From Macrostomum lignano (taxonomy: Eukaryota), in the NCBI GenBank assembly GCA_002269645.1, contig NIVC01004162.1, positions 1 through 57,362 on the forward strand: a stretch of 57,362 bases of DNA, read 5' to 3'. Positions 1,119-43,112 of this stretch are shown here, piece after piece (position 1 is the first letter of the stretch; each line of letters opens with the position of its first letter). Made by a program: the position numbers and the translations under genes. The notes under the pieces were generated by a model. That model saw only the letters and a list, made by a program, of their open reading frames with translations, ran no database searches and was not told where the DNA came from.

Positions 1119-1318
1119 CCCTAGAATCTCACCCTGAGAGTTTAATAAGACTCTAATTGCTATCTCAGACCCTAGAATCTCACCCTGAGACTCTTTGTGA
1201 GACCGACTCTAGTTGCTATCGCATACCATAGAATCTCACCCTGAGAGTCTTTGTGAGACCGACTCTAATTGCTATCTCAAACGGGTCAAACCCAAGAATC
1301 TCACCTTGAGAGTCTAAT
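1119..1318. repeat. Degenerate tandem repeat, about 4 copies, period about 51-64 bp
   Basis: The motif agaatctcacc(c/t)tgag recurs near 1120, 1170, 1226 and 1291, with gactcta(a/g)ttgctatc between copies; it lies just upstream of the GPCR acceptor. Confidence 0.8.
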
Positions 1319-1338
1319 TTTCTTCTGCGTCACTTCAG

Positions 1339-1961
1339 CCACGGATGCTGAAAGTCTGAACGGTTACCAACAGCAACAGCAGCAGCAGCCGCTGCAGCCC
1401 GAACCCAGCTCGCCGACACTCGGCACCGACTTCTTAAATAATCATCATCATCCAAAACAGCGGCAGCAGCAGCAGCAGCGGTCTCAACTTCAGACCCAGT
1501 CGCCACCGAGCTACGAGATGCAATTAAACCAAGCCGGCAACTTCATCGCCAGCTATCGTCAGGCATTTTTACTTCGCGCAAAACTGCGCAGCTTTCGAAT
1601 GTTCTCCGTCATCATTTTGACATTCCTACTGCTCTGGCTGCCCTACTGGGGCCTGTACATATTTGCGTGCGCTAACCGGCTTAGCGGAGGTCGGTACAAC
1701 GACGCGGTGGAACTGATTTCAAACGGAGTGTTCTTTTTCGGCATGTCTACCAGCGCTGTGAATCCGGTAATCTACGGGGCTTATCAGAGCCGCTGGCCGA
1801 CACCTTTGTCACGCTGTTTTGACCGCTGCTGCTGCTGCTGCTGCAAGAGTCTTGGGCAGCACGAAGAGATCAACGATCTGGTAGCAGTTGGTTATCGCCA
1901 GCAGCCGGTTAATTTGGTGATGAAGCTGAGGAATGAGAGAGCTACTAGCGGACCAGACTGA
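1339..1961 (+). CDS. Last coding exon of a rhodopsin-family peptide GPCR (GnRH/AKH/vasopressin-receptor-like): ICL3, TM6, TM7 and tail
   Basis: Acceptor cacttcag|cc at 1338/1339. RAKLRSFRMFSVIILTFLLLWLPYW (TM6), FFFGMSTSAVNPVIYGAY (TM7, NPxxY), Cys cluster in the tail. Upstream exons are not identifiable in the window. Confidence 0.85.
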
Positions 1962-10800: not shown

Positions 10801-13800
10801 GTCAATTAGTTTTTTTATTGTCCAAGACAACTATTAGACCATACTGCTAACTTAGCCCAGGTTTTTGTTGTTAAAGCGCTTTAAATATTATCATAAATTT
10901 TCCCGAAAAAACTTTCTTTCCTCGAAAAATCTCGTTAATTTTTTTAATTGAATATAATACTTACGAATAAATACTTCACCGTTCTACTAGTAACCACCAC
11001 CGTATTGGTTTTACACGTAAAACGCGTTTTATTATTTTACGTCTACATAGTACATGCACGTTACCAACTGGATCTATTTTTTGCTTTCTCTGCTTGTTTC
11101 GTTCCACGATCTGGTTCCAGGCCAAGCAGGGCTCTCCCGAGGCCGCCACATTCCTGTAGCCGGTGTAGACGGCCTGCTGTCGCTGCCGAGCTGCTTCGTC
11201 AGCTGTACCAGAAATGCAGTCATAGCCGGAATTCATGCCTATAAAATGATGTTGTAGTACTCCTAAAGTTACTGAAATTTTATTAAGTTTATTAAGGAAT
11301 CGCTGTCTGCATCAGCGGTTAGACGCTACTCATACATGCTACACTGTCAAAACCGGAGATTGCGACGTTTGCCAGCCGATGTTAATAGTCGACGTCGTCA
11401 TACAAGTCATTAAGTAGATTAAGTGCGTTGCTCGTACATTACTAGACTATACACGCTTATGCATTCGCATGTATAAACATGTAGGTAGTCTGGAGCTTAG
11501 ACTCAAGGGCCACTAGAAGTTACCGTTGTAGCAGTTGTGTTACAGCCTGAATACGAGTACAACGGTAACTTCTAATCGTCCTTGCTTAGACTTCTACCCA
11601 CGGTAATTTATTTGGAACTCGTGAATCCTGGCCGAACGCCAACCGTCGAATCGCGTGGCCTTTTATTAAGCTCCGAAAATTCCGTCTGCTCAAATTGTTT
11701 CATAGCGAATGTATGGTCAGCATCTTTACGGGCGTTATAGAAATCTAAATGAACTCAGTAGAAGGCATGAGGGGGCTTTTGGGACAAAATTTTTCACGTC
11801 CTCCATAATCCCATTAAATCCATCCATATTATCCCTGACAGAATCAGAAAAAAAGGGGGGTCGCACTCGCTCCGAAAACGTCCTCCATAATCCACCTAAA
11901 TCCATCCATATTATCCCTGACAGAATCAGAAAAAAGGGGGGTCGCACTCGCTCACAAAACGTCCTCCATAATCCCATTAAATCCATCCATATAATCCCTG
12001 ACAGAATCAGAGCAGGTGTCCACTGATACCTGTTATGTTCACTGACACTGACATCCACCCATAGCATCTTCGAAACAATCAGAAAATAATCTGCATTCTT
12101 CTCCCCATGGGGCCCACATTCAATTTGCAACGTGCTACCACATCCCTAAGACTTTAAATCCCCAAACCATGGGTCCTTACCCTTTGAAAAAAAACTAAAT
12201 TCTCAATAAAAATGTTTCCAGTTGTCTCTCCAGGTTCTTATTATACTCAGCCTCATCCATTGTACAAATCCAAGTACCGATGCAAACTAGAATGCAGCGA
12301 GTACATGAGAAAATATTGGCCCGACGTTGATATCAATGTCCCTAATATTAATCAAGCACTTAAATCTCACTGGTTTGAAAAACACGGAGTAGTCATTAAC
12401 AATTTTGACAGCTATTATAACTTTGCTGAAGTTATAAGGCAGTTGTAGTAGCCAACTACACGGTTGTACCCTGTAGAGTGCAGACGCAAGATCTAAAAAT
12501 ACTGACAAAATCATGTGCAGCATATAGCGGCTCGTATTAGTTACATTTGTAAGCGATAGCTTACTGATAGTAAAGCTATTTGAACATGGCGCGAATTCCT
12601 CACATGGTTGACTAGAAAATGTCGCCATGTGCAAGGCAAGGACTTGGTGCAAGGGCGTATAAATAGCAGTTCCACTCAGCTGGCTAGAGGTGGAGCCGAC
12701 CTCGTGTGGCTATGACTGACTGACGAGGGCAAACAAGCCCGAAACCGGTCTCAGTCTGCCCCGCATGGTTCGATTCCCACTGGTTACATGATTTTCACGA
12801 ACGTTCGTAAAAATCATGTGCAGCATAAAGCGGCTCTCAGTGGTTACATGATTTTTACGAACGTTCGTAAAAATCATGTGCAGCATAAAGCGGCTCTCAG
12901 TGGTTACATGATTTTTACGAACGTTCGTAAAAATCATGTGCATAACAAGAATTCGCACGAATTCAACTGTGCAAAATAGCATTTTTCTGAGAAAGACTAG
13001 TGCGCAGTTGGATTCGCGCCATTTCCTGTCTTAACAGGAATTCGCACGAATTCAACTGTGCAAAAAAAAGCTTTTTTTCTGAGAAAGACTAATGACAGAC
13101 TTGTGTTTTTTATGTGCGAATACTTGCGAAGTTAACCAACTTTTGGCATAATAAAACAATAGACTGAGCACAGACTATCTTTTTGTGTCCGATTTCTTTT
13201 GTGTTTTCAATCCTTTCACTAAATACTGGTTAGAAAAAAAATAATGCTTGGTCAGTCCAAAAAGCGTGAGGTTGCCTACTAATAAGTATTATGACTAGAA
13301 AAATATACTAAAAATTCGAAATAGAACTGAAATAAAATATTTAGTTATTTTAACATCACATTCTCTCAATGATCAACGTCAATACAAACTCTTCACAGTT
13401 GAAATCAACACCCATCCCATCTTCAATCTCAAACTGTAGCACAATCTCGTGAATCTCCTTATTACTCAATACAACTCTTTTCACTGGATTTGGTTTCTCT
13501 ACCACCATCTGTCCTCCAGCTACAGAGTTGGAGATATTGTACAAAATATTCGTTCGCTTTCCCTTAAATACCCAATCAAGACTGAGATTAGTTCTGATTA
13601 GAATATTCAAACCCTTTACAATGTCTGCTATATTGGGTGCTAAGAACAAACCGCGTACACTTTCCCGGGCCATGCTAACGGTCCCCAATGCTTGAGTGGC
13701 GGTCCGCGCCGCGGATTCTGCCTTATAAACTTTCTTCTCGAATCCCAGTTCCCTATACCAAGTGTCATCTTTAAACTCAACCTCCGCATCTTTGTGAACT

Positions 13801-16800
13801 TGCATGACCACTCTCACTACAGTGAGATCATAGGTTAGTTTGACAGGGAACAGTTTCTTCTCTGGCTTACTCGCATCAGGTGTCTCAAAATGGCCTCTCT
13901 TAGTAAAGACATTTTCTAGAAAGTTATTGTAGGTATCCACACTTTGCGTGCTCACCTGGAATACCACAGGGTCTGCTGCTGCACCTTTCCATTTGTAATA
14001 AAACTTATTATTTGCTGCCATCACATTGGGAACGTTTGACCAACCAGTGAAGTCGTTAAGATAGACATGGTAATTAGCGCCTGGATCCAGGCGAATCGCC
14101 TGCTCTAATTTTTCAACAAACATCCCGTTTGAGTCATTAATTCGCCCAGTTATTGTAATAGGAATGCTCTCCTTGGAGTGCGAAATAATATTATTTAGTC
14201 TTTCAGCAATCGCTTCCATTTTTTTTCACATAAAAAATATTTAAACTTTACTGGATGAATTGTTGATCATGTTAAGCTTCACCTTCCTCTCAAATGCATA
14301 GATAATGTACAAGTCCACGGGTGTTGCGACAGTCCTTTCAATGTTAGTCACGATATTCACAGGGCTGTTATCAGTAGGCATTTGTCTGGCAGACACATCA
14401 GCTCCAAACATCGGATATAGAGTTCCATATTGAAGAGCAGTGATAGCAATTCCATTGTTCTCTTTCACAGCCAAGTCGACCAACTCGCTGTAAAATTTGC
14501 TAATCTTGTTCTGACTGAAATCTCCATTTTGTGGCAGTGCAGGGTAAAGATTATCACTGATTTCATGCTGAATGGACCGCACGTCTCCATGCATGTAGCG
14601 TATAATGCTATTTGGGTTTCTCATATTAATAATGATATACCTTGGATTGCTGCATGATCCCTCTTTGATGCAGATGTTTGTTCTAGTTTCGTTTCGCTCA
14701 TCTCGACACATGTAGGCCGTGTATGCAACATCAATGTCCTTCTCTATTGCCTTAAGATAGTCTGCTTTTAGTGCAGTCTTTGGCTCAATGACTTCCAAAT
14801 ACAGCTCGATTCCGGTTAGCTTCACCTCCATCCTTGTGTGGTCCGCCCCAGTCCACAACACTCTACTGCGATCATCTCTAGTCAGTCTAAATGTGTAGCT
14901 AAAGTTACTAGTCAGTCGATTAAATGTATTACAGAATCCACTCATGAATCTCAGTGGTACAAATACATCAACAGACCGATACTGCGGGTTCTTAGCAGCA
15001 TCATCAGCACCTTGCAATGCATAGTTGTATCTCTTCTTCCTATTTTTATAACCACTGTCATTGATATCTCCTTCTTTTTCATCTGCAATAAAACCCGCAC
15101 CACTTCCCAACTGAATAAAATCAGGATTCTCGATCAAACAATGAGCGTCATAGACAATTCCAAAGTTGGCGATTCGCTCCAACTCTGTGCTCCCATTCGA
15201 TACACTAAACTCCTTGAACATGTACGCCCAAAAGTTACTGATCAGAGCCACATCCGCATCATGCTTGTCAACGTTAGCACGAGCCGCATCCGCACCACCT
15301 TTTGTCTTGAATTGAAATGTCATATGGAAGCCGCTCTTAAGACTGTGCACACTAACCAGAGACGAACATCCATTGTATGTAAATGTCAGTGTTTGACCTG
15401 GACCCAAATTAGTTTCATTCTGGTTCTCGTGACTCGGAACTCTAACTTGTGTCGCTTTGATTGTGCTATCATCACTCAAAATAGGCTTGTTAATTTTGTA
15501 GAAAACTGGTGTCAGTGGGTCGTTCATTTTTTAACTAAAAATAAAATAAAATAAGAAATGAAGCGGAAAAGTACACAGCAGATATCTGAATTGGAGAAGC
15601 TAGCACAAGCAGAGAAACGAGTTACCGGGCTAATAAATAAGGAGCAACAATCCTACAATGAGTTTGTCCAAGCAGCCACAGAGTTTCATAAGCCCGGGTA
15701 TGGAGAAGCTAAGAAAAATATTGATCAGGTCAAAGAAACTATCGACGACATACAGGAAACCCAAGTGCAAAAGGTTTTGGGCAAAATTCCAGAAGCACCA
15801 CAGATACAGCCGCAACCACAACAACCACAACCACATCAATCACAACTAAAAGTGACAGATAACATTTTTGGACCAGTAGAGCGTGTCGAACATGATGGGA
15901 AATATGTATTTGGAATAAGTATGTGGAGAAGAAACATTTATAATGAACCAGTGGAATATTATATCGACATAAATAAGAAACATATTTCTGTTGTCAAAGG
16001 CTCGGAAACTAAGAGCATTCCTTTCACAGAAACCTTACTGACTTTTATGACCAAGAACCAAGAGAGAATCTCGGACAAACAGCTAAAGAACTATAGAGAT
16101 CTAGTGACTTTTGCTCTTGCTAGAGATATAGCAATACTAAAGGCCCCAGAAGTCCTGAGACTTATGTATGATAACGGTGTCAACCTGACTAGATTCAAAA
16201 AGTACAATCACTTTAAACAATGGTTCGATTTGCCAGATCAGGCGGAAGTCATAAAATATCTAGAACAACAACAACAACAGCAACAACAACCACAACCACA
16301 GCAGCAGCAACATTTCACAGAAGTACTCAGGCAACTGGAAAATGCAGATCCGACTCAAGTAGCTGAATATAAGAAACAAAACCCAACAGATTGGCAACAC
16401 TTAGAACAACACTCTCCAGATCGAATGAACAGAATCAAGCAAAGAGTTTTCACACCTCAACAAAGACAGGCACCACATGACAGTTCCATCTCTGAAAGTG
16501 AGCAGTCTTTTGCATCACCTCCCCAGCAGCCACAAGCCCAACCAACTCCACAACCTCAAGACCAACCGCCCTCAACTGGAAAAGGCATGCCTGAATTCTA
16601 CAAGCGGTTAGCTGTTCTTCTAGGAGCGGCAAAGACCGGAATGAAAGACGAGAATAGAAAAGAATTTGTCAACATCCTGGACAAAATGCTTGAGAGAAAA
16701 TATATCGATAAAAGAGCAAGAGAACTTTTGCTTTCACGGTTTAACAAAAAATAAATTTCTATTTAAAATGATGCCAATTATTTTCGAAAAAGACATTGAC

Positions 16801-19800
16801 AAATACTATGACAAAGAGGAACTTAATCTCATTAAACGCGGATCTGGACTTTTCCCTGCAGGCCACTATCCAAGAAAAGAACGCTCAGGGAACGGTCTTG
16901 CCGATTTGATCGCTCAGGGGGCCAAGATTTTTAAGGTCATTGGAGAGAACAAAGAGAACATCAAGAACGTTGCCGAAGCGGCTGGCAGTGTAGCCACAGC
17001 AGCCAAAAAGATAAAGGATACTGTAACACCTAAACAAGAGATTCAACCGCTGGCTCCGCTGGCCCCAAATCCAGACAATGTGGACCCTGCAGTCTATGAG
17101 AAGATGAGAGCTAGCATTAAAAAGGGAAGCGGTTTCAAATTTGACTAAAGGGTACTTTTCAAGGGTACAAGACATGTAAGAGTATAAGACTAGTCCTGAA
17201 ATGACACATCTAAGTCCCAAAATGACACATCTAAGTCCCAAAATGACACATCTAAGTCCCAAAACGACACATTCAAGTCCCGAAATGACACATCTTCTAA
17301 ATGATTTATTATTTAATTTTTTTTCAATCATAGAAAAAATGGACTTCTCAAACGACTTCAATCCTCACTGGACGCGTAATCAGATTAAGTTTTCTCATCA
17401 CGAGTCAATCCCGAGTCACTTCAGATGCATTGTTGTTGGTTCATCAGGTTCAGGTAAAACATTCAGAGTCTTTAACATGCTTCTTAGACCTGGCTTTATC
17501 GACTATGACACTCTGCACATCTACTCTCCCACACTGTATCAAGATGAGTATAAAATGCTGATTTCTGGATTGCAAAACAAACTGAACAAAGAGGACATTA
17601 TTCAATGTGTTTAATAACCAAATGAGCCTTCCCAGTAACCCTGAAATTGTAGCTGCTGAATATGCAAAGCACCTCAAAGACAATGAAAAATGGCAGAACA
17701 TTAAAGTGTTCACCTATGGAGATCCGCAGGCTGATCCAAAGACCAAACTTCTACCCCAACCAGATGAGCTAGAAAAAGGGAGAAAGCATTTGATCGTCTT
17801 TGATGATTGTATGACAGGCCCACAGAAGCAGATAGAAAACTATTTTACAAGAGGGCGACATAACAATTGTAATGTAATTTACATTGCACAGAACTGGTTC
17901 GAGCTCCCGAACAAAACAATTCGTGGGAACTGCAATCTGATTCTCCTGTTTCCAACCATTCCACAGGATAGGCTAAAAAGATTTTACAATGAGGTCATTG
18001 CGCCTGCCTATTTTATAAATCCAACAAAAAACTCAAGCAGAAAGATTTCACAAGAGGAATTCGTTAATCTTTGCTATGACAAGTGGAACCAACCCTATCA
18101 GTTTGTCATGATCAACAAGGAAAAAAGAACTGTAATTTAAAATTTGCTAATAAAAGATGTCTATTAATTTTGCAGGTGAATCCATTTCTGGCAACAGCGC
18201 TCTTACATCAGCTCAAATATCCATCCTTGACAGGCGATATATCAACAGCGACGAAAAGATCCCAGAGATCAAACTGAATAAAAACAGACTGAAAGCCCTG
18301 GAGCGCTCCATGCACCAGTTGCAAATAAACATGGAAGATCTCAGGCTTAAAGTAGCTAGGCAGAAGTTTGAAAGTGATAAGCTTTATGTGCCGTTGTTAA
18401 ACGCAACTAATGAACTTAGGTCAGAAATAACTTCGGCAGTCTCGCAAATCAACAGCTTAAGATCGACAGTTAATCTTCTGGGAAATTCCACTGATAGACG
18501 GATGCGTATTCTTGAAGGAGGAGTTTTCACAAACACAGCTAAAGTGAATAATTTAGAAGAGTTCATGAACCAGTCAACAGCGTTGCATGATAGAATTAAA
18601 GAAAACGTCGCAACCAACATAGGTAAAGTGAGGAATTTAGAAGAGTTCATGACTCAGTCAACAGCGTTGCATGATCGAATCAAAGAAAGACTTGAAGCAT
18701 TAAAGAGAAAGGATGTATCACACAGTAGCTATCTAAACGGAATGTATAGCGCTTGGGGTAAAATAATAAGGAGGCTTGATCGTCTGGAGAGAACACTCAA
18801 TCTTCGTGATATTGCTATTGATGAAGCAGAATCTACTGCTCGTCCGGTCATGTCTATTAATGAAATTATCGAATTTCATCAAAATCAAATCAAATCAAAA
18901 GAAAACAGATCTTTTTTTTCAAAACAATAGATCTTCAAACCGGATAGTTTTGTAATTTTTTTATTTTTTCTAGGGAAAAATGGCCCAACAAAATTCTCTA
19001 TACGATCAGTCTCAATACGTTGAACCTAAAATACCGACAGCACCAAACCCAATGGCACCGAATTCGAACACACAAAGCCTGAATGCACCGAATCTGAATG
19101 CACCTCAATATGAGCAACAAAAACTCTACCCCGTCATTACTTGTAACTCTCAGCAGTTTCGATTGGTGGAGATTCAAAAAATGCGAGATGATCTTGAAAA
19201 AAATATTTTCCACAACACAAAGAAAATTAAGCGCTATGACAGCCACTGTAAATTTTTCGACTATAGCAATATGATTCTAGGAACTGTGTCTGTTCTATCT
19301 GGATCTGCTGCAGCTGGGCCGTATGAATAAAAAAAAGAAATTTTTTTCTTGCAAGAAATCCAAGAATTTCTTGCGTTTATAAGAATAAAAAACTGCGAGT
19401 TTCTTGCAAGATTTTCTCGCCAAGAAAATCTCGAGCTTTCACAAGAAAAGATTTGCTCGGCAAGAAAATCTCACGAGGAAAAGATTTTCTTGCTTTCTGA
19501 TAAATAATTCTACCCCCCACGCAGCGTCTTATAACATGCTCGCAGTTTTTTTTGCATTGTTTCTGGGCTCCTGCAAAGAGTAATCACGATATACATGTAA
19601 AAAATTGGCAACCATTCGATGCCAGGACGCTCAATCTCAGGGTAAAATTTCAAAGCAAAGTGACTTTCCTGTCACCTGATGTTCAGGTAAACTCCACATG
19701 GATTTTGCCACTTTCTAGTAGGATTTTTCTGGACGGATTTTCGGTGTTCACGTGGTTTTAGCCATAGACACAGCATGGGCTGCGCCCAAGCCTGAGGAGA

Positions 19801-22800
19801 CGGCCGTCGATTCCACGTCACCGACATCTTGGTTTGGGCCCTAGACAACTTTCAGCCAAGTGGCAGTCGCCGAGAAAATCTCACGAGCCGAGAAACTTTT
19901 ATTCATGTCTTTTCTAGAATATCTTGACTCGTAAGATTTTCTCCAACAGATTTTCTTGCCGGAAAAGAATTTCTTTAATTTTTCTCATTTTTCTCATTTT
20001 CTCAATTTTTCTCATTTTTCTCATTTTTCTCAAGATTTTCTCACGTTTTATTCATACGGCCCGCTGTCTCAACGTTGCCAGTCATCACAGCCCCAATCGC
20101 AATCCCACTCGGCTCTGTGGGTGCTGCATGTGGACTTATTTCAGCAATTACTGGAGCATTAGCGCGAAACAGGCGAAAAAAACTAAAACAGCTACAGGAG
20201 AAGCAAGTAAAAGAGAAAGGGGTGCACACTTCAATCATAGGGTACATTTCAAGGGCAATCGAGGATAAGTTCATTTCAGAGGATGAGTTCAAAACCATTC
20301 AGGATCTTTATGAACAATCAATTCGAATGAACTTGAACATGGTCGGTACTGATGACATGAGTCAGCTGAGAAATGAACTCGAGAAAGTTCTTCAACATTA
20401 TGCGGAAAGAAGGACAACGAGAAATTCGGTAAGAAGGACGACGAGAAATGCACAATGAACCCCTATGAAACACAGGTACGAATAATTTCCTTGTAGGTCT
20501 TTCGTGTTTTGGTCATTGCAAACAAAACAGTCATGCACAGCTCACCGCAAATATCACTGCTAAGACCTTGGAGAATAAAGTCTGAGCGATAAATTTTTTT
20601 ATTCTTTTTTCCCTTCATATAATTTCTTAGCTCTTCTGGTACTGCCGTCCCATAGCTATCGAAGTAATAACACTTGTGCTTGCGATCGGGATCAATCACC
20701 CAGCAAACCCAATGAGATCCTGGCTTATCGGTGGTGTCAAAGTTCATGATGCCGCATTCCTTTCTTAGAGGAAAATCAGGCAGAGTGTCCCTCATAAATA
20801 TTTCTCTAAAGTTTGGGATTTCCAGTTCGTTAGCCAAATCTTCAAGAAAGTTATTTGTCGTCATTTTTTTGAGTTTTATTAAACTTTCTCTTAAACCTAA
20901 ACCTAGTCTCCACCTCCTAAACCCAACCTCCTAAGCCTAATCTCCAATGCCCGAACGGTAGACTGTTAATATTGTCATCAAAAATGAATCTTTGTTATCT
21001 GCACCTGACAGTCCAATCTTCTTTTGCTGAATTGTGTGAATAATATGGTTTTTAGATTGTAGCTTTGAGAACTCATGTGATGTCTTTTTGTTGCAATTCA
21101 AGGCGTCTCTGTATTCAGCTTCATTAATTTCCTTCCTAACTACACGTTTCGGAATTCCCTTTGATTTTTTATTGGGTCTGACGACTCACATTTTATAAAA
21201 TAGGACTTTGCTCTCAACCCAATGAATTCAGTGATTATGTCACCAGCAATCTCGTCCTTCATTTTCCCAATCACTTTCTTGTTAGTGGCGTCAAACACTT
21301 GATCGCCATTCTGTGTCCTGAAAGATCATCAACTCAGACAAGTCAAACAAATCTTTTTGCTGCAGCATGTCCTGATAAATGTCTTCTGTTTGAATGTCCA
21401 TAATAAAACTGTCTGTGTCAGTGTACAAGAGTTTCATTTTATCCTTGTACTGCTGCTTCATGCCATAGAAGAACTGGTACATCAGACGTTTTGATTCGTC
21501 GAGACAGTGACACCTGTATAGATCGGCTTGCGCAGCGTCACCTTGGTTTTGTAAAATATGATCACACCTAAGTAGCTATTAAAGATATGGAGTTCTTTGA
21601 ATGTTGGCTTTGACATATTTGCCTGAATAACAGCAGGCTCTGATGAGGTAACAAGTTTCAGGTTTGTTCTTTTCCTCTCATTCTCAAGAGTCTTGCCATA
21701 GACAGAGTTGTTGGCCAACTTAAAGAGGTTCTTGTCAAAGTCGTTGGTTGCTTTGGTCCTAAACTGGGTGTTCTTATCAATGTAGGGTTTCATCCACGCT
21801 TCCTCTGTAAATGTAAGAGCCCTGTGAACTTTGGTGACCCTGCAACCAAGTGAGATAAAATACTGAAGCAGTTTGTAATGGATTTTGTAACGTGTCTTGT
21901 TGTTTAGATTCTGTGTTAGTTTCTCTGTATGTTCTTTTTCTGTTCCTGACAGGTGCCAAGTTCCATTATTATCATTGGGAGTTTCGATTATTTTCGGGCA
22001 CTTGATGTTTTCTGGGAAGGGTGGAAAGTCAGAAATAGTCGTGAAGCTCTGGTGGAATGTAAACATCAACCTCATAAATGGCAGCCAATGAAAAGTCCCA
22101 CTTTAGTTCTGATGAGGGTAGCCATCGAAAATCTCTAACTGGAAGATCTTGACTCATCGCCCACCCGTAGAGATTATTAGCGTCCAAGTAAGTAATGTAG
22201 TTTGAGGGCTGCTCCTTATTGTAAGATTCAATGTAGGGATTGTTTGCTTTTGCATACTATGTGCAAATTGAGATTCCCCCTCGCTTTGACGATTCGACAA
22301 AATTGTACATGTCAATGTCTGTAAGAAGTTCAATGTACCAATCTGGATCTTGATCCCATTTCATTTTAAGCAAAGATTCCCAGCTAGTGGCAGGCAGAGA
22401 CACATAATGTGCTGGATCGAGGCCATATGCTGTGTACCAGGTGTATCTGAAGGTTTCAAACACATCGGCCAGCAGAAACACATCTGTGAAGAGGTAAAGC
22501 AGGTGATACTGGAAGAAGTTTTGACAATTAAAGTAATTATAGACATGCTTCGCGTGCTCATAGTCTTTGTCAGAGATTCCAGAGTCTGTTAGCTTTGAAA
22601 AGAACTTCTCCTGTGGTGGTAAACCTTCTTCAAATACGTGATACCCAGTAATATTTTCATAGGGGTAGAAGCCTTTCTTTCTTAAAAGTTTAAATGATTC
22701 ATCACTGTTGTTAATTTTACTTGCAAACATCTTTGTATATGTACATTGTTCATCTTTTAGATTCTTGCTTAGTTCGTCTAGACTGGCAGCTAGAAATTGA

Positions 22801-25800
22801 TATGAATCCTTCAGTCTTATTTTACCTGTACCCGAATTATCCTGTTTAATATCAACACACTTAAACTTCTCCTTGTTCTCTGCGATGCAGTCAAGGTGTA
22901 TGTCTGGAATCATGCCGATTTTTTCAACTATTAAATGCATGTCATAGTTCTTTGCGTTGTGACAAAATATCGTTAGATCATGAATGTTCGATTTTAGCTT
23001 TAGATTACAGGTGTTATGCGCTGCACCTCTAAATTTCCCAGTAAAGTGGCAGTGGTCCCTAACGGTGGGGTTTTTAATATTAGTGCAAGTTAAATGTTTC
23101 CTGCAGATGTGGCAATGAGTTGCTGATAGGAAATTGCTTTCATCCTCCTCAGACATACTTATTGGAATAGGTTGAAGGGTGCTAATCACTCTTTGCAACT
23201 CTAACATTCTGGCAATAAACTGCTCCACACACTGCTCTCCAAAGAAATAATTAGACTCAACAAGTCCTTTTGTAGTAATACGAGCTAAAGGCATATGCTA
23301 CTGAATTGGGGACATGTTTTTGAGTTTGAGTTTGTTTTTGTGTTTCCGGCACGATTGAGCATTCAAAATCAGCATATACAACAAATGGGAGCTTCTCCAT
23401 CTTGTGATAGTTCTTAAACCGGAGATACTTCTCTTCAGCTGAAGGAAGAGAGCAGTTTGTCGGGTGATCCTCGCATGATAATTCATGCTCTGTTAGCTTT
23501 TCAAAGCGTTCAGGTCCACTGTAATGCTTAAGGCACAAGCGGCAGATGGCAACAGCCTCGTGATGATTATTCAACTGCTTGTGAATGAGTCTTGAAAGAT
23601 CTTTAACCCAAACATAGTGAGCCTCCTCTAGTAAATTACCAATCACTAGAAGATCCACTTCAGTCCGCCTTTTCCCCTCAGGATCTAAAACGTCTTTGCT
23701 ACATCTGACCGGTTGAACTTTTTTCAGTTTTCTCACTCCACTCAAAGACTGTGATTCTAATTTTGTTATTAAACACTTCTTCTAGCTTTGGGATCTGAGA
23801 GATCGCCAAGCCTCCTTTGTCAAACCTGATTCCCTTCTTTTCGCATTCGATGAGATAGTAGTTGAAATAATTTTGATAATTTGAGGTTCTTTCGGGGTGG
23901 TGAGGGACACTATCATAAAGAAGTGCAGAAAGAACTGCCCATAGAGCACAGCAATTGTCTTTATTTTTAACATTTATGCAAGCTTTTTTGCCGGCTAGCT
24001 TGTATGGGAGCTCTATATAAGAGGAGGCTTTAAGTGGGTCATATTTCATGACCATGACAGTCGCTCTTTGAATCCCTCCCACGACCCATCCGGAACCTCT
24101 GGATGTAAACGCTTCAATTTTCTTATTGACATCTTGAAGGAAAGGATCCAGTGTGTCTGTTGGGGTGAATGGCTTTGCCTTTGTTGTCATGTAATACTCG
24201 AGATGCTCAGTGGGTTTTGCAGGCATATAAAACGCAATCTTGAATGATATCTGTAGTTTAAAAGTCTTGCGTGTTTTGAGTGTGTGATCAACAACTGATT
24301 GGATGCTGTCTTTATAGTCGTAGATGTTTGCGGTGGTACCGTTGGTGCCGTTAATTGGGATTGTGTACTCTATGTAATGTTCTGTAAACTTCCTCTGTGC
24401 AAAATTAATCTCTTCAGTGGCAAGCTCCGACTCTTTTAAATGGATTAATTGCTCTAATTTCTCTTGTTCCTGCTTATTTTGTGGGTACTTTGCTTTTTCA
24501 CCAGTGAGAGTTTCGTATTTGTTAACTAAGTTGCGACTCTCTCTTGGTGTTCTTTGCAGGATTTTGATAGGCACATACTGGTTGGATTCTAATTGTTGAT
24601 GATTTCCAACTGTTTTTCATAGCTTCCCAGGTGACCGGGGTCGGTGTTAAACTTTTGTTTACATGCTTCTCTTAGTAAATTACTTTTGTCTTGAAATGAG
24701 ACGCCTTTTGAAAAATGTTTGTTGACTAAATCTTTTGCTGGATTAGCTTTTGGCATTTTTTTCTCTAAAATAAAACAAATTTTTGAGGGTGACCACCCTG
24801 ATAGAAAAGTTGAACTGTTTCTACATCCTATAAGTAGCGCTAGGTTTATGAAGCTGGATAAAGTGGGGTTTAAAACCTCATCACATGCGCATTATTGTAA
24901 ACCCAGCATTGTGCAGTGTCATGATTGCTTTGACAATGTCAGACTTGCTTACAGAATTTTCATTCTCACAATCATCACGATCGGGGCAGGCCTCTCCTGC
25001 CTTAATTGTTATACCTTTGTCTCTTGCAATCTTTTGCAATTCCAGCTGGTGGGCTCTATCATTCCCAGCTTTAACAGCAGTTGCTACACCTCCAGCTACA
25101 CCACCTGCGGCACTTACAGCGCCTGCAATGATCGGAATAAGAGCTGCTAATGGTAGGATTCCTCCTGACTTTTCATCTGTGATGCTGTGTCTTTGCTCAT
25201 TACACTGAAGTATTTGCTGCGTGGGATCGATTTTTACTTTGGCACCTTTAATTGATATAATACCTGGTTTCTTTGATTCAATGATTTTATTGAGTTTATT
25301 GATGGTTCTGGTTTCAATCTTTGTCATTTTTTATTTTAATATTTTAATTAATTTCTGTGTCAGCTGGTATCACTAGGAGTTCAGCTCTAGTGAATGACCG
25401 CGTGGGGGATTTAGGGTTAAAGGCTTGAGATAAAAAGTAATAGTCACCGGAGTCGGAGGTAAAATGTCTGTCTATTTTATGCACATCAAGGCTGAAGTAT
25501 GGATCTGTAGCTCTTCTTTTGGTGTCCTTCTCTAGCTCTCCAGGTAGATATAAAAAGCGTAGAAACTCAGAGTTTGTCAGTATGTATGGTGATTCAACTC
25601 CTGGAAGCTTAGGGTAGTTCGAGGTGTGTTTTGTGTTGTGTGTGTTGTGTGGGGTGGTCGTGTTGTTGTCTGTTCTATGAGATGCCTTAAGTTCGACAGT
25701 GTCTTGTTTAATTGCATGGGATGGTTTCAATCCAGTCATGCGTGTGACTTCATTGTTCAGTTGCTCTATAACAGTGGGGAGTCTATCTGTCCACTTGGTA

Positions 25801-28800
25801 TAGTACTGCCCCGCACTCAGTTTGAGTTCTTGCGCTGTCTGCTTAGTGAATAGTCTCTTGGCTAGAGTTAGATTGAATCTTTCCACAAAAGCCTGGTCTC
25901 TGTGGAGCTCAGTTCTGCCATAGCGAATCTCTGTGTTTTTCTTTTCCATAAGGGATTTCACTACACCCATGAATTCCTTACCCGGGTCGGTCATAAAGAT
26001 TTGGGGGTATGTGAGCGGAGAGTTTTTATAAATATCTTGGAGGGCGGCTGCAACTGCTTCTGACTTCTTCGTCTTAAGCGGTCTCGCTTCCTTATATCTG
26101 GAGGCAACGTCTGTAATTGTAAGAGCATACTTGTAGCCTGAGTCGTTGGGGAGAAACAAAAGATCTGCTTGGTGCGCTTCATTAGGTTTATAAATACTGA
26201 AATGGGGCCTTTCAAATTTTACTGGTGGGAAATAGACTTGAAAGACAGCCTGCTTAGAGAGCCATTTTTCTACTGTAGCTTTTGGCTCCTTACTCAGCTC
26301 CATGAGTTTACTAACGGCATTTTTTGCCTACAAAGAATCCTTTGTCGCTGTAGTAGAGTTTTTTAAGTTTCTGATCTGTCATTTATTTAAAAAGAAAATT
26401 TTAAATAAAATAATGCAACGCTCTGGTGGTAAAATAGATTCACATGGACTGATAGAAAAGCTTCCTCATCCAAACAAAGGCTGGACACTTCCCGGCTATA
26501 AATATTGCGGGCCTTTGAATCCTCTTGAAATACAGTTAGATAAAAACAATAATCCAAATCCTGGGCATGAGCCTGTGAATGAGCTAGACTCTGTCTGCAT
26601 GTGGCACGATGTTAAATATAGAGATTTTCCTGAGGAGAAGAATCGCTGGGACAAAGAAATGCTTAAGAGACTAGACAATATAGGGGCTTCAAGCGGATTT
26701 CGTGAGTCGATCGCTCGGAAGCTAGTTAAAGCTGTTATTTTTAGTAAGACAAAACTGGGGTTGGGGGTGTACGCCGAGGGCGGGTGTTTGGGGAGAGAGG
26801 GCGAGTGCACGGGGAGAGAGGGCGAACGCACGGGAGCAGAGTTTATTTTGTGCGCTCCTAACAATGAATTGGGAAGACTGCTGAAAGAGCTGGGGGTAGA
26901 AAGGGGCGCTTGAATCGGGAAGGGCATGAGCAAGTGTGGATTTGAGTAAGTACAGTTTTTTATTCCCTAAAGAGTTGCGCACAAGATAGATTCTCATTCT
27001 CCAGAGAGCTAAGAGCAGAAAATAAAAAAGTCAACCGCTTCGCTCCCATTAGCATGCATGGACTGTGTATGTTGAGATTCCCTCCTTGATTGATATTGAT
27101 TATTGGCCAAATTGCGAGGCCAGTTGGCCCGCCGAGTTGGCCTCGGCCCGCCGATTTGGCCTCGGAATGTGGCCCGCCTAGTTGGTCTATACGGTATGAA
27201 TATCTAAAAATAGCCTACGAGTATGAGCGTATAAATTCAAGGAAGAACTGTGCACGTCTCGCCACACTTGGCACATGCCTTCTCTTTCGACTCTCAAGGA
27301 ACGTGTTATTGCATTGAAACGGAAACAAAATAGTAAACTAGGACCCCTCACAGCCAGCCACAGAAAATCTGACTTCAGAAGGATTAATATAGAAGTATTT
27401 CTACAAGAAGAGGAGCCGCAATATAAGGAAAACGAACTATTTTTGCAACGTCTTCGGGAGTATCGATCCTCGCGAAATAAACTTCACCATCTAGAAGAAA
27501 CCGTTCGTACACAAACTAGATTCAATCAAGAAAGACGTGCGGAAGAAGAGGAAGCGGATAATATCCGCTTCCAAGAGGCCGATCCACCACTGCCTAACCA
27601 TCCGCCTGTGGAATCGCCGGCGTTAACAAATTTGCCACCGCCACCGACGACATGGCTTCAACCGCCAACCCAACTGGCCGCGTCGCAGCCTGGTCTATCA
27701 CAACCACCGATCCAGCCGAAGGCTGAGCCAATGGTTACGGATTGGTCAAATTCTGGAGGGCTGTGCCCCTATTGTCAACACGAACCACAATATCCTGTTT
27801 TTACTACATGTTGCAGGGGCGTCTTCTGCAACCAGTGTTTGACAACCGCACTTGCTCAGGGTGAGCAAACCTGTCCTCTCTGCAGGAGCCCCAGAGAACA
27901 AGTGTAACTGTAACTTTTTTACTCGAGCATACTACTGAACTATGTTGATTAAACTGGAGGTGAAAGGTTTTTTCCTAGAAGTCGAGATAATTATTTCTTT
28001 AAACTTTTTACTCGAGCATACTACTGAACTATGTTGATTAAACTGGAGGTGAAAGGTTTTTTCCTAGAAGTCGAGATAATTATTTCTTTAAACTTTTTAC
28101 TCGAGCATACTACTGAACGGTACATAAATACACTCGTGTGTCATCGATGGCGATCTGTTATTTGAAAAGTGACAGATCATGTTCGAAGTTTTCGGAGCAA
28201 GTAGGACACCTGTTATGCTCTGATTCTGTCAGGGATAATATGGATGGATTTAATAGGATTATGGAGGATGTTTTGTGAGCGAGTGCGACCCCCCTTTTTT
28301 CTGATTCTGTCAGGGATAATATGGATGGATTTAGGTGGATTATGGAGGACGTTTTCGGAGCGAGTGCGACCCCCCTTTTTTTCTGATTCTGTCAGGGATA
28401 ATATGGATGGATTTAATGGGATTATGGAGGACGTGAAAAATTTTGTCCCAAAAGCCCCCTCATGCCTTCTACTGAACTCTATCAATGACCACTTTCGACG
28501 AAAATTAGACGAAAAACTTAGACGAAACGGATCGCCTCCTGAAGAGTAATCTTGAAAGAAATTTAGCGCGGACCTCTTACCTAATGCCTGTGTTAAATAG
28601 TTCTATTTCTAACATCTGTACACTTATTCACGGTTAAAGCCTCTTGACTCAATGCTTTTGACCAGTTTGCAAATTTGAACCGAGAACAGTTTGAAACTGG
28701 CCCCATCAGCAAATCAAAAGTTCAGAAGGCGTGTGCGGTGTCCTTCTACAACAGCAGCGTTCAAAATTGAAGCCTTAGAAACCTACGGCAGAGTGGGACG

Positions 28801-36094: not shown

Positions 36095-36663
36095 CCTTGG
36101 TGCCGGCGCCCCTTGGTGCTGGCGCCCCTTGGTGCTGGCGCCCCTTGGTGCTGGCGCCCCTTGGTGCTGGCGCCCCTTGGTGCTGGCGCCCCTTGGTGCT
36201 GGCGCCCCTTGGTGCTGGCGCCCCTTGGTGCTGGCGCCCCTTGGTGCTGGCGCCCCTTGGTGCTGGCGCCCCTTGGTGCTGGCGCCCCTTGGTGCTGGCG
36301 CCCCTTGGTGCTGGCGCCCCTTGGTGCTGGCGCCCCTTGGTGCTGGCGCCCCTTGGTGCTGGCGCCCCTTGGTGCTGGCGCCCCTTGGTGCTGGCGCCCC
36401 TTGGTGCTGGCGCCCCTTGGTGCTGGCGCCCCTTGGTGCTGGCGCCCCTTGGTGCTGGCGCCCCTTGGTGCTGGCGCCCCTTGGTGCTGGCGCCCCTTGG
36501 TGCTGGCGCCCCTTGGTGCTGGCGCCCCTTGGTGCTGGCGCCCCTTGGTGCTGGCGCCCCTTGGTGCTGGCGCCCCTTGGTGCTGGCGCCCCTTGGTGCT
36601 GGCGCCCCTTGGTGCTGGCGCCCCTTGGTGCTGGCGCCCCTTGGTGCTGGCGCCCCTTGGTGG
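36095..36663. repeat. 16-bp minisatellite (CCTTGGTGCTGGCGCC), about 35 copies
   Basis: Essentially invariant tandem unit. Confidence 0.98.
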
Positions 36664-37679
36664 GGTTTTGAAAGGGTTAATTGAGGTGACATTCCATAAG
36701 CTAAGTGTAGCCTTGTGAATCCACTGTTTTTAATTTGGATGACTCCAAGTTCTGCGTCAAACTGTCCTTGGACAGGATGGAGAGAGGAGGAGGCGGACAG
36801 ATGCAGAGAGAGAACCGTGGGAACCGCGACACGTGGGATCGCTCTAGCATCCCCAGCATCCCCAGCAGCTCCATCAGGGATTTTTGTTGATTCATTCTTT
36901 CTCCCCATCTATACAGCTTCCTCCATCCCATGCATGCGTTCCAATGCTAACATACTCGACTTGGGTTTCCAGTCCAGATCGGGTTTTCTCTTCAAAAGTA
37001 GTCCTTCGCTCAATCGTATTGAAATCGACTGTGAAGACGAATTGCAGATAAGCTTAGCTGCTTAGAAGGGATATTTGTTAAATAATTGGACTAGTATAGT
37101 TCGCTGGGATTATCTTAGAATGCTTGGTTGGATAGAAAAGAAGCTTTCCCTGAGCTCCTTCTGTCTCCTACGCCTACCCCCTGTCCATTCTTCCAGCGCC
37201 CCCAAGCTAACATGGCCTTGGAACAACAGCTGACGGAATTCCCACCATAACTGGTGGCCCCTTACAAGACACGGCCCAAGAGTTTCTTTTCCTTCATCTG
37301 GCTCCTCGTCGATTCGTTACCAGGGCCTAAACTCTTATATGCTACGGAGACTGGAAAACGAAACTATTTTTGTCAATACTTGAAGCAAAAACTATACATG
37401 TACATGTTCACATGACGCCAAAATCAGTGTTTTAGCTAGGGAAAAATCAGTGCTTAGAAAGTGCCAAAACTAGGGTTTAAATTGTGCCAAGGCCAAAATT
37501 AGTGTTTATTTGTCGCAAAAATTAATGTTTATATAGCGACAGAATCAGTGTTTAAATAGTGTTTAAATTGGTGTTTAAATACCAACAAAATCGGTGTACA
37601 AATTGTGCAACAATCTGTGTTTAAATATCGCAAAAACCAGTGTTTAAATATCTTCAAAATCGGTGTTTAAAAGGCGACT

Positions 37680-38176
37680 AAATTAGTGTTTAAACAACGC
37701 CAAAATTAGTGTCTAAACAGCGCCAAAATTAGTGTCTAAACAGCGCCAAAATTAGTGTCTAAACAGCGCCAAAATTAGTGTCTAAACAGCGCCAAAATTA
37801 GTGTCTAAACAGCGCCAAAATTAGTGTTTAAACAACGCCAAAATTAGTGTTTAAACAACGCCAAAATTAGTGTCCAAACAACGCCAAAATTAGTGTCTAA
37901 ACAGCGCCAAAATTAGTGTCTAAACAACGCCAAAATTAGTGTCTAAACAACGCCAAAATTAGTGTCTAAACAGCGCCAGAATTAGTGTCCAAACAACGCC
38001 AAAATTAGTGTCCAAACAACGCCAAAATTAGTGTCTAAACAGCGCCAAAATTAGTGTCTAAACAACGCCAAAATTAGTGTCTAAACAGCGCCAAAATTAG
38101 TGTCTAAACAACGCCAAAATTAGTGTCCAAACAACGCCAAAATTAGTGTCTAAAAAACGCCAAAATTAGTGTTTAA
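37680..38176. repeat. 23-bp minisatellite (CTAAACA(G/A)CGCCAAAATTAGTGT), about 21 copies
   Basis: Directly visible, with degenerate copies extending back to about 37420. Confidence 0.95.
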
Positions 38177-38867
38177 ATCGCGCCATAGCGCCGAAATCGG
38201 TGCTGACAGGAATTTTCAGAGTGAAAATTTTAAACTCAAACCTCCAAATATCGTGACCGGGCGCAGAAAAAATAAAAGAAGAGTTGCCTTTCCAGAATTT
38301 TGCTTAACGAAGTTTAATGCTCCGCGTCTTCACGCGTGCTCCCGTTGTCGTGTTTTGGGATTCGAAATTGCTGCCTACTGGGTGAGGGGCCGGGGCTGCG
38401 GAAGTCGCTTGATTGGTAAGAAACAGTTACCGCAGCCCCCACCCCTACCCCAAGCCTGGCTCAAGAGCAAGACTTAAATAGATGCTATCCAATTACTGTA
38501 GGGAAACTTATCATATAGGGTCGCCTCTCTGCCCGTTAATTTCTGCTCCTAGCCAAACCATTTGTTAGTGAAAGACACGTGGATATTGCATATAGAATAT
38601 AATATACTGGTCTGCCAGTGCCACGTAAAATCACTCCAAGAGAGCTACTAAGCCTTACCTTAATAAGCCTTACTAGGCCACCCGTGAGAACGGAGCCATC
38701 TGGATTTCTTATTTTTCCTCGCTTTGCTCCCTCCTCCCTCTCTGGCTGCTCACGCTACTCCCTATACCGTTTTTAGGCATAGAGGGAAGAGAAGAGCTCA
38801 GCCCTAGCAGTAGGTAAGGGCTGCAATCCGAATCATATTCTCACTGTGCAGTTGCGCGTGCGCGTGA

Positions 38868-41073
<2,206 letters not shown>

Positions 41074-43112
41074 ACAATTTCTAAGAATAACTAATTGCCA
41101 TTATGACACTTTATGATTGTTTATATTACGAGAGCCACTGTATAAGAAGATACCGTTGGACGTACGAATACATAGCACTGTTGGCTAGTTTAATATATTT
41201 TTTGTGTAGCACTACAAATAGTTCACAGGTAACAGTGAAGCAGTAGAGTACGCAGGTAGTTTGAAGGGCCGCAACCCCTTGGCCATATTTGATTTCTTGG
41301 TATGCGTTTCTTCTCTTGAGCCAATGGATGCGAAGTCCAAGAGGAGACTAAAGTTGGGCGCCCGTCATTCTTCCAGTTTGGTTACAAGTCTTCTCGCATT
41401 TAGCTTTTCGAGGGGTGATTGGAGGGGCCGCGACCCCCTGAACCCTCCCCCCTTTGCGAACGCCAATGCAGCGCAAAGATTACCCCACCCATGGCTGTTC
41501 TCTGTACTTCAAAACTTGAAGCCATTTTTCAGCATAACAGGGTTACATTTATGATTAAGTGCAACGGTAACTTCAAGTGATGCTATGCCTGTCAATAAAG
41601 TCCTTTATATTACTCTCTGTATATTTTGATTTTAGTCTACTTTTAAAAAGATTTCCCAACGAATTAGGTTTCGGTTTTGGTAAAATGTTATAAGATTTCT
41701 ACTTGCAGAAAGATATTGCTGATCATACGAAGTATAATGTTTTTAAATATATGCATTATAGTATCGAGTTTTTTAGCGCAATTCAGAAACAAGCCATTCG
41801 ATCAATCTATTATGTAAGTTCTTTACTACTGATAACCTGCAGAGCTGTTAGATTATTTCAGTTAATTATTGCCTGGTCCGTAAATCAGTATCGAGGCCAA
41901 AGTAAAGATATAATATTTGACTAAATTCTAGAGAATCACAAAATTGCTAAAATTAATAACGAGTTCTAGCCGCGAAGAATGTGCATTGACTTGTAATTAA
42001 ATCAACTGTCTCGTTTGCAAGTTTGTCAAGACTTTCTAAAACTGGTAACAGACTAATTAATACATGAAAATTGTAACCAGTGTAGATTAAGAAACAGTGC
42101 GCTTGATTTAAATCCATACAGCAATCCGAAATAGACGACAACCTACGGATAACGACGTCATAGGTCGGCTGAACGTCAGTGTAATGTAAAAAGACGAATT
42201 TGTCAGTTACGTCCGTACATCGGACGTCCGGCTTGTCGTGGGTATGTTTTTCAGATTAGAAAATAAAATCTTCAAATTAGGTTTCAAAAACTAATTTTAC
42301 TTAATCCTGTCACGTCACTAACTACTTCGTAGTATTAGTTATTGACTTAGGCGAAAGTTCTAAATTATTGTCATAGGTAGGCCAATTGTTGCACCAAGAA
42401 ATCCCGCATGTCCGTCAAATTGTTTTCAAGAAAAAGAGGAACCTACACATGAGAGTTTATGGATTGTCAATGCATCAATTGTGCATCAGACATCAGAGAC
42501 TTCAAAACTGTCTAATTGGACTGTCTGTTATGTTAATATCGTAAAACTTCTCAACGTACTTAAGACTCTCCATTGTCTTGCCCGTACGTACTAAATGTAT
42601 TTGACTGAACTAGAAAATAAACAAAAGTTTTAAACGACGTAGTTGAAAAACTGCGCAGCTTATCTACCCAAATTTGAGAAATTAGAACATGTGATTTAGT
42701 TAACTCTCGTCGATGCTTTAAAACAATAAAAGTTATACCTTCTGTAAAAATATAGAGGCCTCATATCGATGCAAATATTATATAGCTTAGATTACCAGAA
42801 ATTATAATTCCGAAAACCTGGCTTCATCAGAAATACGCTCGCAATTTTTTCATCAGTAAAACAGCATTTAAGTGTTCCAGATAAATTATAACAAAACTGA
42901 TTCATCTCTTGACGGAAATAAAAAATCAAAATTAATAATATCGAGCATACCAATTCCATCAGAAAAAAATCAAGAAAATAGTGATTAATTCCAATAAGAG
43001 AGACAAGTATTATTTTTAGAATGAATATTACAAGTACAAACGACTTAATTACAAAGAAAAATTAAAACGTCAAATCATACATCAAACGTCAAATTGGCCT
43101 GTCCAGAGTCAG

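Follow-up and report, generated by a model that had tools for sequence, protein, structure and literature searches.

A likely recent Polinton insertion in a DEG/ENaC channel gene of Macrostomum lignano, carrying a retrotransposon end with a predicted hammerhead ribozyme

The window analysed here is the whole 57,362-nucleotide stretch of contig NIVC01004162.1 (GenBank assembly GCA_002269645.1, positions 1 to 57,362, forward strand) of the flatworm Macrostomum lignano. Its central feature is a Polinton of 16,717 bp at 11757–28473. A flatworm DEG/ENaC channel gene is present in three copies, and the element occupies an intron in one of them. The element combines virus-type genes, a nested miniature inverted-repeat transposable element (MITE) and a solo long terminal repeat (LTR) that contains a predicted hammerhead ribozyme. 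Its boundaries are as follows.

11751–11756 (no strand): left target-site duplication, GAACTC, 6 bp, present as a single copy at the empty sites on contigs C649 and C261
11757–12014 (+): left terminal inverted repeat (TIR), 258 bp, with three subrepeats of ~82 bp, from repeat comparison
28216–28473 (−): right TIR, 258 bp, from repeat comparison
28474–28479 (no strand): right target-site duplication, GAACTC, 6 bp, matching the left one

Polintons, or Mavericks, normally have AG...CT ends and create a 6-bp target duplication. The element has both of these in addition to TIRs, with termini that read 5′-AG...CT-3′. The intact ends and perfect duplication of the original prediction are therefore confirmed. 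The near-identity of the TIRs stands as well, with the exact count corrected from 254/257 to 255/258 (three mismatches). The same site is empty on C649 and C261 of the same assembly, where both flanks abut over one GAACTC. A further contig, C3007, duplicates the first 16,620 bases of the window, left junction included. M. lignano has been described as carrying three subgenomes ~2% apart (PMC10733133). As the three host loci differ pairwise by 1.62%, 1.52% and 0.69%, the empty sites are probably homeologous subgenome copies, and polymorphism from worm to worm is not implied.

The insertion is likely recent. The right-hand 11 kb differs by ~0.3% from a sister copy on contig C2640, and the host flanks differ by 1.5–1.6% from their empty homologues. 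The TIR mismatches were rejected as an insertion clock, since two of the three are standing variants among copies of the family.

The host gene runs on the minus strand across window positions 31256–7957, with kringle-like and WSC-like segments in the extracellular loop whose domain labels are weak in this copy. WSC accompanies ASC in five of seven relatives among the matches listed, all of them from Macrostomum. The exons nearest the element are these.

11065–11238 (−): host exon 3′ of the element on the host strand, weak kringle match, from comparison with a homologue
28787–28909 (−): host exon of 123 bp that by eye resembles a kringle end, directly upstream of the invaded intron, contained in the annotated protein P0132 of the empty homologue
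28997–29271 (−): host WSC-like exon, from a splice joint, with the WSC match found only in a paralogue

The 123-bp exon codes for a 40-residue segment of P0132 and has good splice sites and phase. It lies between the WSC-like exon and the element and had been overlooked, which reduces the invaded intron from the 17.8 kb first given to 17,548 bp (11239–28786); the empty intron measures 825 bp. WSC and kringle exons had been named as its flanks. Both labels fall below the Pfam cut-off in this copy. The splice joints 29271/29853 and 30148/30671 are seen in sequencing runs X13, X14 and X20, the first of them in X14 and X20.

The genes of the element, from left to right, are given below.

13356–14219 (−): likely minor capsid protein (mCP, penton), 287 amino acids (aa), open; adjoins the major capsid gene; weak penton match
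14241–15527 (−): major capsid protein (MCP) of the double-jelly-roll type, open; PF21738 E 1.7e-5, below cut-off; homologues; fold search
15558–16754 (+): open reading frame (ORF) of 398 aa, 68–98% among copies, from ORF calling and copy comparison
16768–17148 (+): 126-aa ORF, from ORF calling
17339–18140 (+): A32/FtsK-type packaging ATPase in two frames, broken near 17.6 kb; E 0.0017, below cut-off; Walker A and B motifs
18157–18930 (+): 257-aa coiled-coil ORF, from ORF calling
18980–20458 (+): membrane-protein-like ORF, split by the MITE; run contigs join across the MITE site
20463–20864 (−): adenovirus-like maturation protease, open; E 0.00075, below cut-off; His/Asp/Gln/Cys motifs
20937–24760 (−): protein-primed DNA polymerase B (pPolB) that has an endonuclease VII (HNH) insert as well as vOTU-like motifs (Cys and His); PF03175 E 2.5e-10; several frames in the assembly
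24881–25327 (−): protein X-like ORF (adenovirus pX), 148 aa, separate from the phospholipase gene; PF05829 E 4.2e-7
25344–26383 (−): rve integrase with D, D, E motifs and one frameshift near its 5′ end (~26.3 kb); PF00665 above cut-off
26413–26913 (+): parvovirus-type phospholipase A2 (PLA2)-like ORF, open, no intron; PF08398 E 8.3e-14
27275–27907 (+): accessory gene with a RING finger, 210 aa, belonging to a large set of end cassettes that replace one another; Pfam match; in 2/36 other copies fetched
27908–28118 (no strand): 89-bp tandem repeats after the RING gene, from repeat search

Pfam places the pPolB, rve integrase, PLA2-like, pX and RING products at or above cut-off, in agreement with the accessory genes originally named (PLA2, pX-like and RING), and the MCP, A32 ATPase and protease below it. 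The replication and packaging genes retain their catalytic motifs in the natural frames, and the exonuclease and polymerase motifs of pPolB are present across its pieces. The element thus holds the pPolB, integrase, MCP, ATPase and protease of a Polinton, the last three at sub-cut-off scores. For the MCP, all nine of nine homologues carry PF21738, and the top Foldseek matches of a low-confidence model (pLDDT 52) are mostly major capsid proteins. The product of 13356–14219 is likely, if weakly so, the minor capsid protein: no Pfam family was found for it, its 53-sequence profile matches a PDB penton only at E 0.033 and its own model has a pLDDT of 35, and a protein atlas gave viral clusters. 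A full virion gene set had been claimed; the MCP, ATPase and protease bear this out, and the minor capsid label does not reach the same footing.

The atlas gave no match for the 398-aa ORF, and no family above the Pfam cut-off was found for the membrane-protein ORF or for nine ORFs of other copies (eight from end cassettes and one unsplit membrane ORF). The PLA2 gene has no group I intron, and its GGNCC site is uninterrupted in 31 of the 31 copies that have the site. GGNCC sites are not depleted, with 26 observed and 26 expected. A 21-bp tandem repeat that varies between copies lies just upstream of the ATPase gene, at window 17192–17296. Relatives of the MCP at 71–74% identity (P0002–P0006) come from short metagenomic contigs.

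The element belongs to a young family. The genome-wide copy search that had been suggested returned at least 35 full-length pPolB matches at 95–98%, a lower bound on copy number as 40 of 380 candidates were scored. From the best matches, 36 copies were chosen and fetched. Fourteen other copies have two ends, with perfect 6-bp duplications, all different, in 12 and unmatched ones in two. Together with the vacancy of two of the three homologous host loci and the ~0.3% sister copy, this upholds the earlier proposal of a recently active, adintovirus-like family. Across nine natural open pieces in 22–37 copies, the ratio of nonsynonymous to synonymous changes is 0.04–0.26 for shared variants (MCP 0.07, integrase 0.13, polymerase 0.04–0.26) and 0.20–0.66 for private ones. 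These ratios are crude counts rather than tree-based estimates and reflect past selection. Read from these counts, the family is under purifying selection, capsid gene included.

Two MCP types (74–79% between types) and two ATPase types (81%) circulate in the family, and all four combinations occur among 12 duplication-matched copies (7, 3, 1 and 1). The window element is itself of mixed type, resembling the C2640 copy from 16.8 kb rightwards and carrying the other capsid type to the left. Among the 48 ends examined, those long enough to compare represent 12 classes of cassette, and two of these classes are found at both the left and the right end. The best explanation for these mosaics is recombination between co-resident copies. 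Further insertions are found in other copies: the MCP gene of the one on C1753 (L052–L053) is interrupted by ~3.5 kb with retrotransposon-like ORFs, and other ends hold a reverse-transcriptase fragment and a 365-aa frame (L182:4382–5539, L190:2593–3687).

Transcription of the family appears likely. Runs X13, X14, X18 and X20 are guessed, rather than recorded, to be RNA; all four cover genes of the element. Contig depth over the low-copy RING gene is 16–36, against 3–7 for spliced host contigs, and it is near flank depth in DNA-like runs, a contrast that argues against DNA carry-over. RING contigs end at 27945 in several runs, which the 89-bp repeat explains.

The description of the element as complete holds for its ends. 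Several of its genes read as broken, and one ORF is split by the following insertion.

19316–20062 (no strand): PIF/Harbinger MITE, 747 bp, with 17-bp TIRs and a 3-bp duplication; free copies and a 3.2-kb partner that codes for a transposase are >99% identical to it

The partner codes for DDE_Tnp_4, and the features are those of a PIF/Harbinger MITE. The 3.2-kb Harbinger elements (C1425:167832–171026 and C3999:38824–42018, >99% to the MITE) represent a second very young transposon family. The MITE is absent from all 36 other Polinton copies fetched, and contigs from all eight runs examined join across its site in the membrane-protein ORF. The pPolB gene lies in pieces, with a longest open stretch of 346 aa. 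Against the column majorities of the 36 copies it shows 15 short insertion or deletion (indel) events, two of them within a common 3-bp variant and eight private. The ATPase and the integrase have one frameshift each.

Most of these breaks are quite probably assembly errors. The published long-read assembly of M. lignano was made with Canu and Pilon (PMC5730564). Three lines of evidence underlie this reading. Indels do not track substitutions: across the 36 copies frameshifting indels drop as substitutions climb (rho −0.37, p 0.026), and private indels are unrelated to private substitutions (rho 0.09). C3007 and the window differ inside the element at 10 positions, all indels and all in the last 860 bp of C3007. 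Lastly, the run contigs lack the states of the window; its state at the ATPase break is almost wholly missing from contigs of four runs, and at the integrase break contigs of three of four runs are without it.

Close to the left end lies a further insertion, of a different kind.

12548–12781 (+): solo LTR of a family with the anatomy of a terminal-repeat retrotransposon in miniature (TRIM), or LTR retrozyme, with the 3′ end shortened relative to free LTRs; from the match to free LTRs
12714–12756 (+): minimal type I hammerhead ribozyme, predicted to cut after 12750; Rfam HH9 32.7 bits, E 6.2e-5, below the gathering score of 52
12775–12954 (no strand): array of three 60-bp units, every one containing a 34-bp palindrome, within which the LTR lies; from repeat search
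C201:371.7–373.2 kb, C4118, C3053, C1413, C63, C247, C1089 and C114 (outside the window): free hammerhead-TRIM copies, five of them solo LTRs and the others arrays with 4, 3 and 2 LTRs

The LTR holds a TATA motif and tRNA-like box A and box B motifs, identified by eye against those in PMC10886601; no tRNA gene was found within the window. All core nucleotides and stems I–III of the hammerhead are present. A descriptor scan gave one match in the window and none in 100 shuffles of the element, and the pattern had no matches in metagenome contigs. Rfam microRNA matches at 12788–12943 were discarded, as they reflect only the 34-bp palindromes.

The free copies reveal the design of the parent family. 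They consist of 230-bp LTRs around a 160-bp non-coding interior, with a period of 390 bp. The first 10 nt of the interior are complementary to the 3′ end of host tRNA-Glu, and a run of purines closes it ahead of the 3′ LTR. Perfect 5-bp duplications flank seven of the eight free insertions, and the LTR ends are TG...TA rather than the usual TG...CA. With terminal direct repeats, primer site, purine tract, duplication, solo LTRs and a hammerhead in the LTR, the parent of the Polinton-borne LTR is, on its anatomy, an LTR-type retrozyme of TRIM build in which the hammerhead is a predicted one. Three extra matches to a pattern of LTR end and primer site were set aside as chance, all lying in sugar-transporter genes.

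The Polinton-borne LTR splits the 60-bp array and is missing some of its 3′ end, which indicates that it was captured by the Polinton and not the reverse. It is probably a passenger there. The hammerhead core was scored in 22 Polinton-borne loci, two of which are the same insertion: it is intact in 11, has G12 changed in 10 and has G12 deleted in one. With the core broken in 11 of the 22, selection for cutting is not evident, and no covariation was seen, hence no sign of structural selection. Minimal hammerheads with a palindromic stem III would be expected to cut best as dimers. The free arrays allow such dimers, and a single Polinton end does not.

The element shares with animal Polintons and adintoviruses (PMC8502044, PMC4028283, PMC11161782) the TIRs, the 6-bp duplication, a pPolB with vOTU-like Cys/His motifs, the rve integrase, ATPase, protease, double-jelly-roll MCP with an adjacent penton candidate, and PLA2-like and pX-like genes. 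The RING gene, the hammerhead solo LTR and the MITE are its own in this comparison. PLA2 has been described for Alpha adintovirus modules, and a fused PLA2X is tied to Alpha virion modules (PMC8502044); here PLA2 and pX are separate and on opposite strands. The polymerase may lean to the divergent Beta class, judging by its partial PF03175 match and its HNH insert, which occurs in most homologues among the matches listed. Nematode Polintons with exchanged pPolB (10.1101/2023.08.22.554363) likewise exchange modules between co-resident copies, and some of their pPolBs have HNH. In the M. lignano family, by contrast, the polymerase is uniform (96–98%), and it is the capsid (74–79%), ATPase (81%) and end cassettes that vary. 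No account of a Macrostomum Polinton or Maverick was found at the level of literature listings, and no flatworm entry appears in the PMC8502044 supplement file searched. A 2026 preprint mentions Polinton/Maverick insertions in Rhabditophora.

Published accounts describe animal retrozymes as lacking LTRs, primer site and purine tract, or LTR retrozymes as mainly found in plants (PMC7229834, 10.64898/2026.07.22.740005). The Macrostomum family shares with the plant elements a non-coding LTR design in which both LTRs contain a hammerhead, together with the primer site, the purine tract and a short duplication. It differs in its animal host, a minimal type I rather than type III hammerhead, a 5-bp rather than 4-bp duplication, a 390-nt unit and tandem arrays, and is thus not a retrozyme of the plant type. 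The metazoan non-LTR retrozymes of the same two sources also have type I hammerheads in tandem units (150–450 bp). They are tied to Penelope-like elements and are described as having no LTRs, primer site or purine tract, whereas the Macrostomum family has all three and solo LTRs, and so falls outside that group too. The nearest animal design is that of the Helenus TRIMs (PMC10886601), which share short LTRs with tRNA-like box A/B, a primer site, solo LTRs and tandem arrays; some bivalve Helenus families use a tRNA-Glu primer. No hammerhead is reported in that account, animal Helenus duplications are 4 bp, and the supplement text searched has no Macrostomum entry. No animal LTR retrozyme was found at listing level, and a prior annotation in Repbase or in repeat supplements is possible.

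The explanation that we favour, and regard as fairly probable, is that an intact-ended Polinton entered one of the three DEG/ENaC copies, likely recently and by means of the integrase of its family, that its breaks are probably mostly assembly errors and that the retrotransposon end with the predicted hammerhead is likely a passenger. The Polinton would be excised or copied and then replicated by protein priming from its ends, with the vOTU-like part of the polymerase processing the polymerase (PMC11161782, PMC4028283). Co-resident copies would recombine to give the capsid, ATPase and end-cassette mosaics, and the element would be packaged by its own capsid set and reintegrate with a 6-bp duplication. 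The LTR would have come into an ancestral Polinton when an LTR element integrated in the ordinary way in the 60-bp array, and would have been reduced to one LTR and then been spread by the Polinton. As for the host, it most likely removes the enlarged intron by splicing, and any loss from the filled gene copy would be cushioned by the two empty ones.

A number of observations weigh against this explanation. Near the right junction, contigs of runs X1, X2 and X4 carry only non-window alleles and then non-element sequence, with window-type alleles present ~1.4 kb from the junction in X1 and X2; the filled site is therefore seen in the assembly alone. In the RNA contigs of the RING gene, two letters are those of sister copies and not those of the element in the window. 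The mosaic switch (~16.2–16.8 kb) coincides with the end of C3007, as a collapsed tandem pair could produce. The single mosaic element might then be an assembly composite, through such a collapse or a join of reads from two copies, and its left and right TIRs do belong to different family haplotypes, while two other two-ended copies have unmatched duplications. A composite is nonetheless very unlikely, considering that each end is joined to a unique flank, the two flanks lying next to each other in the empty homologues, and that the 12 other duplication-matched copies show the same mixing of types. The copy could also be truly dead, its polymerase, integrase and ATPase frameshifts being real; it would then either have been moved by other copies or have decayed immediately once inserted. 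The whole polymerase is open in only one of 37 pPolB copies, private events in the pPolB of the window comprise eight indels and five substitutions, most of the indels lie outside long homopolymers and the majority state at the integrase break is missing from run X16. Because rare variants are lost from run contigs, this copy may have private frameshifts that are real, and the MITE insertion is a real lesion, a sign that the copy is accumulating damage. Such a death is judged unlikely: indels do not scale with substitutions, the most diverged copies being almost free of private ones, the duplicate contig disagrees by indels only, and the MCP, mCP, protease, pX, PLA2 and RING genes are open.

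More serious, though still short of what we expect, is the possibility that the family spreads only as an intracellular transposon, its capsid genes kept for another role or from a recent viral past, with no infectious particles. The evidence for this family comes from sequence, Polintons with unseen virions commonly have conserved capsid genes (PMC8097293), and the selection counts have the limits given above. On the other hand, shared variants of the MCP are as constrained as those of integrase or polymerase, and in four studies the MCP, mCP and protease genes are covered by contigs that are likely RNA. With regard to the cargo, the hammerhead scores below the Rfam gathering threshold, the ribozyme is predicted from sequence, and searches by DNA and by pattern gave no autonomous LTR partner. 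The Polinton may instead have co-opted the LTR cassette, whose polymerase III-type promoter, hammerhead and hairpins would yield a small structured RNA of the sort that adenovirus VA RNA represents, or would halt read-through at the end of the element. Among 40 scored genome matches to the 234-bp LTR, ~25 are Polinton-borne, 14 free and one partial; the cassette always points inward, at either end; the 34-bp palindromes follow the LTR (fold z −3.8); and likely RNA runs cover the junction of LTR and repeat. Even so, 41 of 48 Polinton ends have no cassette, those that have it being five left and two right ends, and the broken cores and missing covariation noted above make co-option highly improbable. 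Finally, viral poly(A) signals on the host strand might truncate or mis-splice the channel transcript, as was originally proposed. The element has 14 AATAAA on that strand, the first ~1.8 kb past the donor, in an intron grown from 825 to 17,548 bp. The surrounding 1,041 bp of host sequence already has four AATAAA, however, two gene copies are empty, and the hammerhead, which lies antisense to the transcript of the host, would not cut it; this effect is rather improbable.

Several other features lie in the window. The 3′ exon of a G-protein-coupled receptor-like gene is found by eye at 1269–1961 (+), and two large exons at 38868–41073 (+), also read by eye, presumably belong to a Suppressor of Hairless/RBPJ-like gene. 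A gene of very large size and many exons, in which numerous beta-rich repeats look fibronectin-like by eye, covers 43020–57362 (−). Satellite arrays occupy 35200–38250, 40230–40490 and 43590–45100, with units of 45, 16, 23, 14 and 18 bp.

The insertion itself is ordinary, and the interest lies in the virion question and in the retrozyme cargo. Virion formation by animal Polintons is a long-standing question, for which M. lignano, a worm that laboratories maintain and make transgenic, offers a family that is young, appears to be transcribed and has its capsid gene under constraint. The cargo derives from an animal retrozyme built like an LTR retrotransposon, and a virus-like element would be amplifying a ribozyme-bearing retroelement end. 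We tentatively suggest, at a little below even confidence, that a living, recombining population of integrating DNA viruses ferries the first animal LTR-type retrozyme, whose multiplication would owe more to the virus than to retrotransposition of its own. If true, the published split between LTR retrozymes of plants and non-LTR retrozymes of animals would be broken.

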